A DNA stretch of 64,000 nucleotides from Escherichia phage FL08, in sequence record PP400785; one strand, 5' to 3'. Position numbers and translations under genes: made by a program. The notes under the pieces were generated by a model, which was not told where the DNA came from, ran no database searches, and saw only the letters and a list, made by a program, of their open reading frames with translations. Positions 62,650 to 64,000 of this stretch are shown here, piece by piece (positions within the stretch are counted from its first letter, which is position 1; every line of letters starts with the position of its first letter).

Positions 62650-62660
62650 AGATACCAAAA

Positions 62661-62684
62661 AGCCCCAACCTTTTGGTCGGGGCT
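62661..62684 (-). terminator. terminator hairpin, copy 1 of direct repeat flanking IP-like gene
   Basis: agccccaacc-tttt-ggtcggggct; followed by UUUUU on minus transcript; near-identical copy at 63217..63240. Confidence 0.55.
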
Positions 62685-62691
62685 AAGAATG

Positions 62692-63165
62692 TTATTTGAT
62701 TTGTTTAGCAGACCAAATGCGATCTTTAATAATTTTTTGGATGTCTTCAACATACTCTAGGTCATGAGCATGTGGATTATCTTTGAAACTATGAGCTCGC
62801 GCAAGTTTCTGGCCTTCGGTCTTAATTATCAAAAGTTCTTTAAGAATTGCTTCATACCTAGAGATAATTCCTTTAGCAATATTTTTTTCTTGTGCTGCTT
62901 TAGGGTCAGCCTTAGGAGCAGGTTTACCTGAAGCCTTTGCAAAAGCAGCTCCAGTAGCAACTAAACTTTTCCAGGCCATACTAACTGCATTTCCCGTAAA
63001 TCCTTCCGCTTTCATGTCGCGTGCGAACTGGAATCGCGATTCATCAGAAGCATCTTTATAAGAATATTTACCCGCTGCAATGGCTGCTTTTGCGACAGCT
63101 TGAATTTCGGTGCTAGATGCTTCATTTAACACCGCTTCATTTAAAAATTGAGTATATGATTTCAT
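62692..63165 (-). CDS. internal-protein-like protein with CTS-like N-terminus
   Basis: 157 aa; N-terminus MKSYTQFLNE resembles CTS; Lys/Ala-rich; late promoter TATAAATA upstream. Confidence 0.55.
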   Translation of the reverse strand: MKSYTQFLNEAVLNEASSTEIQAVAKAAIAAGKYSYKDASDESRFQFARDMKAEGFTGNAVSMAWKSLVATGAAFAKASGKPAPKADPKAAQEKNIAKGIISRYEAILKELLIIKTEGQKLARAHSFKDNPHAHDLEYVEDIQKIIKDRIWSAKQIK

Positions 63166-63201
63166 CTTATTTCCTGTTTTAATTCGTGGTTTTAATATAC
63201 T

Positions 63202-63209
63202 TATTTATA
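63202..63209 (-). promoter_or_regulatory. late promoter (TATAAATA) for IP-like gene
   Basis: minus-strand TATAAATA ~35 nt upstream of ATG, directly after terminator hairpin. Confidence 0.55.
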
Positions 63210-63216
63210 CTAAAAA

Positions 63217-63240
63217 GCCCCAACCTTTCGGTCGGGGCTA
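63217..63240 (-). terminator. terminator hairpin, copy 2 of direct repeat
   Basis: agccccaacc-tttc-ggtcggggct with U-run on minus transcript. Confidence 0.55.
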
Positions 63241-63287
63241 AGCCTTGCGGCAACCTTGTCGGGGTTCCACCTGCTAAGGCAAGTGTT

Positions 63288-63382
63288 TGTACGAAACGCC
63301 GGGATTCGAACCCGGTTATCAAGCAGTTGACGCTACTCAATATTTTTAAAAGGCCATATCTCGACCATATCCGAACGTTCCG
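63288..63382 (-). ncRNA. tRNA-like / small stable RNA candidate (unresolved)
   Basis: Minus-strand T-arm CCGGG-TTCGAAT-CCCGG and 7-nt acceptor-like 3' segment pairing with CGGAACG ~90 nt upstream; could not fold a canonical cloverleaf by hand. Confidence 0.3.
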
Positions 63383-63555
63383 TCAAAAACGCTACTCGGC
63401 TTACGGCAAAGATATTTCCTCGAATCGATAATTCGGTGCGCCGTTTCTGCTGTGATGTAAGGGGACATTAACAAAACATAAAGATTTATTAATGCCAGTC
63501 CTTAAACAGGGAACATCAGTCCGACGACTTGCCGGTAGCGACCCGGCTTCTTGTC

Positions 63556-63631
63556 TGGTCGAGGCAGTAGGGATCGAACCTACGACCCAGGACTTAGAAG
63601 GTCCTTGCTCTTCCTTCTGAGCTATGCCTCG
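63556..63631 (-). tRNA. tRNA-Arg (anticodon TCT)
   Basis: 76-nt cloverleaf on minus strand: 7-bp acceptor CGAGGCA/TGCCTCG, anticodon loop CTTCTAA, T-loop GGTTCGATCC, encoded CCA. Confidence 0.85.
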
Positions 63632-63634
63632 TAG

Positions 63635-64000
63635 TTAAAATTTCATTTTTCGACCTTTAAACCATCCTTCTGGAATTGGGTCAGTTTTCTTAATACGTTT
63701 AGAAACTTTTTCATCTAATGAATGAATCCACATCATACCAAATTGGGAATTCTTTTCACCTTTCTGGTGATTATTTTTAGCGTGAGATTCTTTCATTTTA
63801 TTAATAGTTTCAGGAGTATGGGTCTTACCCAAGAAAGATTTAGTATTTAAAAATTTCTCTCTATACTTAGGATTATCCCAAAGCTGTTTAAACCTTTCTG
63901 AACCCATTTTACGATATTTTTCTTTAAGGTCTGGGTCGTTCTCAAATCTGGTTTTAAAAGCGGCAGCTCCTTTTAAGGAAGCTTCTTTCTTTTTATCCAA
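63635..64000 (-). CDS. GIY-YIG (Seg-like) homing endonuclease, C-terminal part; segB-like by position
   Basis: Truncated by window edge; NUMOD-like repeats (GKTHTPETINKMKESH, GEKNSQFGMMWIH); stops 3 nt from tRNA-Arg. Confidence 0.5.
   Translation of the reverse strand: MDKKKEASLKGAAAFKTRFENDPDLKEKYRKMGSERFKQLWDNPKYREKFLNTKSFLGKTHTPETINKMKESHAKNNHQKGEKNSQFGMMWIHSLDEKVSKRIKKTDPIPEGWFKGRKMKF

Follow-up and report, generated by a model that had tools for sequence, protein, structure and literature searches.

The closest described system is the tRNA cluster of bacteriophage T4, whose primary transcript of ~1.75 kb gives rise to eight tRNAs and to the species I and II RNAs, and in which transcription terminates past the species I RNA gene (PMC2330249). 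When the tRNA-Arg of this cluster matures, the segB mRNA is severed at its extreme end (PMC2330249). In the curated T4 record (NC_000866), segB is followed on the same strand by tRNA-Arg, by rnaD after 1 nt and by rnaC after a further 6 nt; the last two are misc_RNA features, rnaD being the 'species 2 RNA' of 119 nt (71053..71171) and rnaC the 'species 1 RNA' of 139 nt (70908..71046). RNAC has been detected by Northern blot in T4 infection, where it accumulates as a stable species, and both RNAC and RNAD are classed as late RNAs with unknown functions (PMC9697503). Papers from 2010, 2022 and 2025 alike call the roles of rnaC and rnaD unknown (PMC3014915, PMC9697503, PMC12685909), and when a T4-like phage was evolved on a semi-permissive host, every line acquired a convergent SNP in rnaD (PMC12685909).

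Here we analyse the corresponding region of Escherichia phage FL08 (PP400785), within a stretch of 64,000 nucleotides that we refer to as the window. A sequence-only reading had recognized a tRNA-Arg beside a segB-like gene, together with a T-arm-bearing element that resisted folding into a cloverleaf and that, it suggested, may be a long-variable-arm tRNA, a stable RNA like T4 species 1 or 2, or a decayed tRNA. It omitted the minus strand, on which every feature of the tRNA and stable-RNA interval lies, and the second RNA gene, rnaD, which fills 120 nt between tRNA-Arg and the T-arm element.

Comparison with T4 and other phage records

BLASTN of 63180-63660 (minus strand) against 50,697 phage records matched 939 of them, nearly all T4-like phages of enterobacteria, and because the best matches are 97-99% identical we assign the window to a Tequatrovirus (T4-like coliphage). 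The rnaD-rnaC stretch was matched in 798 of the 50,697 records, the best at 99% identity. RNA genes rnaC and rnaD are annotated under this match in RB27, RB9, RB59 and GiZh; the RB27 and RB9 records, which carry both names, are 99% identical over the stretch. Coordinates were transferred by pairwise alignment to T4 NC_000866, a comparison that the sequence-only reading had itself proposed and that maps rnaD to 63435..63554 and rnaC to 63290..63428, with identities of 136/139 for rnaC, 103/121 for rnaD and 79/85 for the trailer plus terminator. We have very little doubt that the minus strand of 63211..64000 carries the distal part of a Tequatrovirus tRNA operon and that the T-arm element is the 3' third of rnaC, so that, among the three options, the T4-like stable RNA was the right one. 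The transcript would run from the 3' end of segB through 3 nt, tRNA-Arg(UCU), 1 nt, rnaD (120 nt), 6 nt and rnaC (139 nt) into the trailer hairpins and the terminator. The features of the interval are as follows.

63635..64000, minus strand: segB-like homing-endonuclease gene, 3' part, 121 codons plus stop, running off the window end (ORF list, BLASTP)
63556..63631, minus strand: tRNA-Arg, anticodon UCU, encoded CCA (ARAGORN; Rfam RF00005, 65.8 bits)
63435..63554, minus strand: rnaD (species 2 RNA) homolog, 120 nt (mapping to T4; RB27/RB9 annotation; ten-sequence alignment)
63290..63428, minus strand: rnaC (species 1 RNA) homolog, 139 nt, predicted tRNA-shaped four-way junction (alignment to T4; MFE; covariation; model R1)
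63246..63289, minus strand: 3' trailer with small hairpins between rnaC and terminator (fold; IME08 sequence)
63211..63239, minus strand: intrinsic terminator of the tRNA/stable-RNA unit (terminator scan; conserved in T4)

Membership of the two RNA genes in the T4 rnaC and rnaD families is assigned by homology and synteny. The homology of rnaC to its T4 counterpart is full-length, with three substitutions only and a score of 154.5 bits under R1, a covariance model built from the rnaC alignment. As in T4, it has the same length, trailer and terminator, and lies 6 nt past rnaD and after tRNA-Arg, in the same order and with the same spacing, no gene standing between it and the terminator of the tRNA operon. 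For rnaD, homology (nhmmer E 2e-21 to T4) is accompanied by a position directly 3' of tRNA-Arg. Nothing contradicts the identification. Beyond the terminator there is an extra ORF cassette that T4 does not have. The content of the interval is made up of already-known T4 features, with nothing new in kind, and for this window the import is small: the textbook T4 tRNA-Arg beside segB and the species 1 and 2 RNAs are rediscovered. The present analysis shows the T4 gene identity, the fold and covariation of rnaC, and its conservation inside the tRNA arrays of seven genera, with a covariation-supported rnaC secondary structure as a by-product.

tRNA-Arg and the segB-like gene

The canonical tRNA-Arg that the sequence-only reading had placed at 63556..63631 is borne out by two methods. 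ARAGORN calls tRNA-Arg(tct) at 63556..63631 on the minus strand with tct at position 34, and RF00005 matches 63559..63631 on that strand with 65.8 bits (gathering score 29, E 4e-12), so that score, cloverleaf and anticodon all mark it as a member of the family; 63556-63558 are its encoded CCA. This is the only tRNA that ARAGORN finds in the 64 kb window. T4-like phages likewise have a tRNA-Arg(UCU) with the same anticodon and encoded CCA in the slot between segB and rnaD, and in records that have no segB (e.g. JB75, 99% identical) a tRNA-Asn is annotated adjoining tRNA-Arg. The allele here is not that of T4, with 50 of 80 aligned positions identical to T4 tRNA-Arg; it is the one carried by IME08 and VR25 (74/76 identical).

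The segB-like gene ends with a stop at 63635-63637 and the tRNA-Arg begins at 63631, leaving a spacer of 3 nt (63632-63634), as had been read from the letters. That no other tRNA lies in this gap is true, and trivial at such a length. Over the 121 aa that lie in the window, identity to T4 SegB (residues 101-221) is 82% (BLASTP, E 2e-73), which upholds the segB-like assignment by homology. The 'GIY-YIG' label that the ORF had been given does not rest on anything visible in the window: its N-terminal ~100 codons, including the GIY-YIG catalytic domain, would fall beyond position 64000, and the label is one by homology to SegB. Pfam returned nothing on the visible 121 aa. The segB fragment is a mosaic when compared with T4, the last 183 nt being 181/183 identical and the preceding 183 nt only 121/183.

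rnaD

As in T4, rnaD begins 1 nt past the CCA of tRNA-Arg. Its differences from the T4 gene lie mostly in the central hairpin, and its 3' end reads CACCG where T4 has CACCA, so that a CCA is not fully encoded here. We aligned ten homologs from Tequatrovirus, Gaprivervirus, Dhakavirus and Marfavirus. The 5' hairpin, GCCGG-GUCGCUA-CCGGC at 63531-63547, takes the form RCCGG-GUCGCUA-CCGGY across the ten, with a closing pair that covaries between A-U and G-C, and the core segments AAGUCGUCGGACUGA..GUUCCCUG and AUCACAGC.GAAACGGCGCA are invariant. The 3' segment, also invariant, ends in GGCGCA, and in eight of the ten homologs CC comes next. The central hairpin is lineage-specific and is swapped wholesale between lineages rather than drifting. 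Because the core is invariant, the rnaD fold receives almost no support from covariation.

Fold and covariation of rnaC

Positions in rnaC are numbered so that RNA position p equals window coordinate 63429-p. The MFE fold of rnaC (-49.3 kcal/mol, z -3.8, none of the shuffles as good) is closed by its own 5' end, which pairs with the strand adjoining the T-arm. Homologs were taken from PG7 and Pet-CM3-4 (Karamvirus), Entb_45 (Kanagawavirus), Melville (Gelderlandvirus), TG1 (Tegunavirus), Klebsiella phage P545 (Marfavirus) and IMG/VR contigs, and the full 139 nt are conserved in Tequatrovirus, Gaprivervirus, Karamvirus, Kanagawavirus, Gelderlandvirus, Tegunavirus and Marfavirus. RNAalifold on eight rnaC sequences returned the same fold, with compensatory changes in 25 of its 46 pairs. 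Across 13 sequences from the seven genera, 89.0% of cells are paired, compared with 38-47% when partners are slid, 25 of 48 pairs have changed on both sides, and 0 of 500 shuffles reach the covariation score. The thirteen homologs thus support a predicted tRNA-shaped four-way junction, and on four homologs outside its training set (T2, VR25 and two IMG/VR contigs) R1 scores 115-153 bits. The principal elements of the predicted fold are listed here.

63421..63427, minus strand: acceptor stem, 5' strand CGAUUCG, p2-8, seven pairs with 63292-63298
63357..63414, minus strand: long extended arm, p15-72, ~58 nt, 14 of 23 pairs (helices 3 and 4) compensatory
63317..63342, minus strand: helix 5, 10-bp stem with 6-nt loop CGUCAA, p87-112, 8 of 10 pairs compensatory, loop nearly invariant
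63299..63315, minus strand: T-arm CCGGG-UUCGAAU-CCCGG, unique in the window, 2 of 5 stem pairs covarying
63292..63298, minus strand: acceptor stem, 3' strand CGUUUCG, p131-137 (alignment, covariation)

At the acceptor end, rnaC resembles a tRNA closely. The T-arm that had been described as clean, CCGGGTTCGAATCCCGG, stands at 63299..63315 on the minus strand; it is the sole match in the window even at two mismatches (0.00 expected from shuffles) and combines a canonical 5-bp stem with a UUCGAAU loop. It is stacked straight onto the acceptor stem, whose 3' strand, the CGTTTCG at 63292..63298 rightly read as acceptor-like, is followed by U (63291), A (63290) and an invariant CAA. As in a tRNA, a 7-bp acceptor thus adjoins a 5-bp T-stem that is capped by a 7-nt T-loop, and compensatory changes occur in both the acceptor (alignment columns 4-10/136-142) and the T-arm helix (119-123/131-135). 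The T4-type acceptor, CGAUUCG/CGUUUCG, contains two internal U.U mismatches. Such mismatches are present in 12 of the 13 sequences, and in Yersinia phage TG1 (CGGUCCG/CGGACUG) they are replaced by U-A and C-G. Pair 3 is A-U in the T4 type and G-C in most other genera.

The remaining arms are not those of a tRNA. A 3-bp helix, AGG/CCU (63418-63420 with 63351-63353), carries the long arm, which occupies the place of the D-arm, and a 9-nt U/A-rich linker separates the long-arm helix from the 10-bp helix. Helix 5 sits in the place of the anticodon arm, from which it differs in its dimensions (5-bp stem and 7-nt loop in a tRNA), and 1 nt separates it from the T-arm. The arms that covariation supports are thus the extended hairpin of ~58 nt and the 10-bp stem capped by a 6-nt loop, and rnaC has neither a 5-bp anticodon stem with a 7-nt loop nor a D-arm. 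Several loops and linkers are nearly invariant, and the conserved unpaired motifs are the CGUCAA loop, a UUGAC loop and an A-rich linker. The failure to fold a cloverleaf locally, within ~90 nt, is explained by the closure of the acceptor by the 5' end of rnaC itself, ~130 nt upstream. The distance of about 170 nt that had been given from tRNA-Arg to the T-arm segment needs correction: the T-arm starts 240 nt past the 3' end of tRNA-Arg, and what starts ~173 nt downstream is a ~94-nt tRNA-Sec-like sub-fold (63291..63383) alone.

This sub-fold is the basis for reading the element as a working tRNA of the class II or Sec-like type, ~94 nt in length, with a long variable arm and an 8-bp acceptor, ACGGAACG/CGUUUCGU, in which p46-53 would pair with p131-138. 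The helix is perfect in the window but for one G.U, the Rfam tRNA-Sec model gives a weak match to 63291..63383 (16.4 bits, E 2.1), and ARAGORN calls a 95-nt tRNA-Met in PG7 and a 96-nt tRNA-Phe in Pet-CM3-4 on the rnaC-homologous stretch, which is annotated as tRNA-Met in the PG7 GenBank record. Both the weak tRNA-Sec match and the two ARAGORN calls rest on the 8-bp helix, however, and that helix shows no compensatory pairs and has one position unpaired in 10 of 13 sequences, whereas the competing pairing of the 5' end covaries. The 'anticodon' changes from CAT to GAA between close homologs and is read from a junction strand; ARAGORN is silent on the element in this window, T4, Melville, TG1 and P545; and the annotated T4 RNA is 139 nt long, not 94. 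A search of Rfam at E<=10 over 63100-63700 gave no RF00005 match besides tRNA-Arg, and the tRNA-Sec score compares with a gathering score of 47. We consider a class II or Sec-like tRNA extremely improbable.

A decayed tRNA, left over from a tRNA array and without a function of its own, would be consistent with the location in a tRNA cluster, the perfect T-arm and the missing anticodon arm, and the clean absence of rnaC from Dhakavirus indicates that it is dispensable in some lineages. Yet the whole 139-nt RNA is conserved in seven genera with 25 compensatory pairs and nearly invariant loops and linkers, from which we conclude that its structure is under purifying selection, and the T4 RNA accumulates as a stable species (PMC9697503). 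This explanation is very improbable.

We conclude that rnaC is tRNA-shaped at its acceptor/T end and is neither a decoding tRNA nor a decayed one. With a canonical tRNA (RF00005) it shares the 7-bp acceptor joined to a 5-bp T-stem, the UUCGAAU loop and the setting in a tRNA array, and it differs from canonical, class II and Sec tRNAs in its length of 139 nt and in having no D-arm and no 5-bp/7-nt anticodon arm. It falls outside the tRNA, class II tRNA, tRNA-Sec and tmRNA families: its tRNA-Sec score is below threshold, its 8-bp 'acceptor' does not covary, and ARAGORN found no tmRNA. The tRNA-like domain of tmRNA, mascRNA and the bacterial Y-RNA-like YrlA are acceptor/T-arm mimics that use tRNA-processing enzymes for their biogenesis. 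The mascRNA (14.2 bits) and permuted tmRNA (10.1 bits) models match rnaC locally, at 63299-63315 only, and beyond the T-arm rnaC has no sequence or model similarity to tmRNA, mascRNA or YrlA.

Distribution and annotation

In PG7, Melville and Pet-CM3-4, rnaC lies inside the tRNA array, between tRNA-Trp and tRNA-Gly, and rnaD was not detected in these three phages. Conversely, the Dhakavirus phages IME08, AnYang and IME540 have kept rnaD and the trailer, with rnaC exactly absent. The two genes behave as independent cassettes. A looser pattern search of IMG/VR yielded 31 loci, 23 of them new, of which covariance-model search identified three as true rnaC (L146, L150 and L156). In genome contigs the pattern TTCGAGGA..GGCCTT..TAACC matched at least 120 loci. 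When the matches listed were searched by nhmmer with the rnaC profile, none proved to be a true homolog; the pattern is too loose to gauge the presence of rnaC in bacterial genomes.

Our data are evidence that wrong or missing annotation of rnaC is widespread. Neither rnaC nor rnaD is covered by a family in Rfam 15, and at E<=10 both receive chance-level matches only (tRNA-Sec, isrK, mascRNA, permuted tmRNA and others); the Rfam check suggested by the sequence-only reading supports its tRNA-Arg. For want of such a family, annotation pipelines leave the two genes blank, place spurious 'hypothetical protein' features over them or miscall rnaC as a tRNA-Met or tRNA-Phe of 95-96 nt. The covariation-supported rnaC model (A6/R1) could seed an Rfam family.

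The protein labels raise the question of whether the stretch encodes small proteins. Many GenBank records have one to three 'hypothetical proteins' annotated over the rnaD-rnaC stretch, and mechanical ORFs do exist here, at 63346..63474 (minus strand, 42 aa), 63179..63340 (minus strand, 53 aa) and 63186..63431 (plus strand, 81 aa). Against this, homologs differ by single-base indels inside the ORFs (alignment columns 20, 60, 76 and 85), substitutions track RNA base-pairing and not codon structure, and the curated T4 record has misc_RNA there. We give the coding explanation virtually no credence.

Biogenesis and possible functions

The maturation of species 1 RNA involves RNase P, RNase E and RNase III. 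We propose that the acceptor/T-arm minihelix would let the host tRNA-maturation machinery excise rnaC, with RNase P acting at the 5' end and trimming at the 3' end, and that it may also stabilise the RNA. Cleavage by RNase P at the 5' end of rnaC would at the same time release the 3' end of rnaD. The 5' end annotated in T4 (U1) lies 1 nt upstream of the canonical RNase P cut position, and the 3' end of rnaC is followed by ACA in the T4 type, by UCA in TG1 and by CCA only in the Marfavirus type. This offset and the U.U mismatches of the acceptor stem weigh against the proposal, and since CCA is lacking at the 3' end in most genomes, processing and any tRNA-like activity of rnaC may be atypical.

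These features might be all that there is to explain, rnaC and rnaD acting solely in cis as processing and stabilising modules of the polycistronic tRNA precursor, which supply defined RNase P and 3'-end sites and shield the 3' end of the precursor. It speaks for this that in T4-type phages the two genes close the operon, immediately ahead of the terminator, that the rnaC 5' cut would generate the rnaD 3' end, and that after 50 years there is no known phenotype or target (PMC3014915). In PG7, Melville and Pet-CM3-4, however, rnaC is internal and not terminal, a processing handle has no need of the CGUCAA loop, the UUGAC loop or the A-rich linker, and the convergent rnaD SNP hints at a host-dependent role (PMC12685909). 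We regard a purely cis-acting role as unlikely, though one to be taken seriously. The conserved unpaired motifs, the internal position of rnaC in some arrays and the rnaD SNP argue for more than a processing handle.

As a best guess, which is speculative and held with the same low confidence as the cis-acting role, we suggest that rnaC mimics a tRNA without decoding and ties up a host or defence factor that binds tRNAs. More doubtful still is the fuller proposal that rnaC is a selected mimic, maintained as a mobile cassette within tRNA arrays of at least seven T4-like genera and acting in trans on a tRNA-binding factor, with rnaD having a separate, host-dependent role, as the convergent SNP hints (PMC12685909). 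If rnaC does act in trans, it could possibly act as a decoy, diverting either a defence nuclease that targets tRNAs or an enzyme of tRNA processing or modification. The comparative structure singles out the acceptor/T module, the invariant CGUCAA loop and the A-rich linker as targets for mutation.

SegB motif, trailer and downstream cassette

The core recognition motif of SegB is GGTTCRANTCC (PMC2330249). A motif scan found its sole match in the window in the DNA of the rnaC T-arm, at 63302-63312, where the SegB-type motif reads GGTTCGAATCC. This could link SegB cleavage to the spread or loss of rnaC; a 2026 paper on SegB and Septu (PMC13096335) makes no mention of rnaC or rnaD.

Downstream of rnaC, 63205-63292 folds at -38.3 kcal/mol (z -4.1). 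In the Dhakavirus phages, which have no rnaC, the trailer sits directly after rnaD (IME08 sequence). The terminator has a 10-bp stem at 63216-63239, in which seven pairs are G-C, and a U-tract after it, and matches the T4 unit in ending transcription after the species I RNA (PMC2330249). The two ORFs searched drew nothing from Pfam, and PHROGs returned families of unknown function only. The terminator is duplicated 555 nt downstream, and the two copies flank a late-promoter-driven ORF of 157 aa that is without a counterpart in T4.

Independent behaviour of rnaC and rnaD

Sequence comparison indicates that rnaC and rnaD, the homologs of T4 species 1 and species 2 RNA, behave as independent cassettes. 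Dhakavirus phages (IME08, at 1497-1660 of its locus L006, and loci L022 and L023) retain tRNA-Arg, rnaD, the trailer, and the terminator, and rnaC is exactly absent from them, leaving the junction CACCGAA|CACTTG. In PG7, Melville, and Pet-CM3-4, rnaC sits between tRNA-Trp and tRNA-Gly, and no rnaD is detectable in these three phages.

Both RNAs are poorly represented in existing annotation. Only 5 of 60 sampled records name rnaC or rnaD, and many Tequatrovirus records carry one to three "hypothetical proteins" across them. ARAGORN miscalls the rnaC homolog of PG7 (locus L003, 2554-2648) as a 95-nt tRNA-Met(CAT), with which the GenBank annotation agrees, and that of Pet-CM3-4 (locus L008, 1547-1642) as a 96-nt tRNA-Phe(GAA). 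A "terminator-like" site returned by a consensus scan on the plus strand of the window (63531-63547) was rejected as a false positive because it is just the rnaD 5' hairpin read on the opposite strand.

Mosaicism at segB and tRNA-Arg

The tRNA-Arg(UCU) allele of the window (63556-63631) differs from the one carried by T4, with 50 of 80 aligned positions identical, whereas it nearly matches those of Dhakavirus IME08 and Gaprivervirus VR25 (74/76). The segB fragment (window 63635-64000) is mosaic relative to T4 segB. We infer a recombination junction within segB, since identity to the T4 gene is 181/183 in the last 183 nt versus 121/183 in the 183 nt before, and a second junction at the segB/tRNA-Arg boundary. 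Records at 99% identity that lack segB (e.g., JB75) have tRNA-Asn annotated beside tRNA-Arg.

GGTTCRANTCC, the core motif recognized by SegB (PMC2330249), occurs only once anywhere in the 64 kb window, in the DNA of the rnaC T-arm (GGTTCGAATCC, 63302-63312); the T-arm of the neighboring tRNA-Arg, GGTTCGATCCC, does not match this motif. SegB may therefore have a secondary cleavage site in rnaC, at a distance of about 320 nt from its own gene.

rnaC 3' end and a possible alternative pairing

The 3' acceptor strand of rnaC is followed (window 63285-63291) by U-N-CAA in every homolog, with CAA invariant. At N, T4-type phages have A, TG1 has U, and Marfavirus-type phages have C. The T4 annotation ends rnaC at the A in the N position, and an encoded CCA after the acceptor strand occurs only in the Marfavirus type.

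Within rnaC, ACGGAACG (p46-53; window 63376-63383) has two possible partners:

upstream GCGUUUU, forming conserved helix 4
63291-63298, 3' acceptor strand CGUUUCGU, forming 8 bp

Across 13 homologs, the 8-bp pairing has no covariation support, and 82% of cells are still able to pair. It is possible that T4-type phages have an alternative rnaC conformer containing this helix.

A probable cassette insertion downstream of the operon

A 36-nt segment carrying the operon terminator is present twice, at 62652-62687 and 63207-63242; the copies are 94% identical and 555 nt apart. Associated features are:

62692..63165, minus strand, 157-aa ORF enclosed by the two segment copies
63202-63209, minus strand, T4 late-promoter box TATAAATA upstream of this ORF

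T4, unlike the window with its two terminator copies around the ORF, has a single terminator and lacks the ORF, so the arrangement looks like a moron-type cassette insertion. The sole match of the 157-aa ORF is phrog_2280, a family of unknown function, and other ORFs occupy its slot in G28 and IME08.
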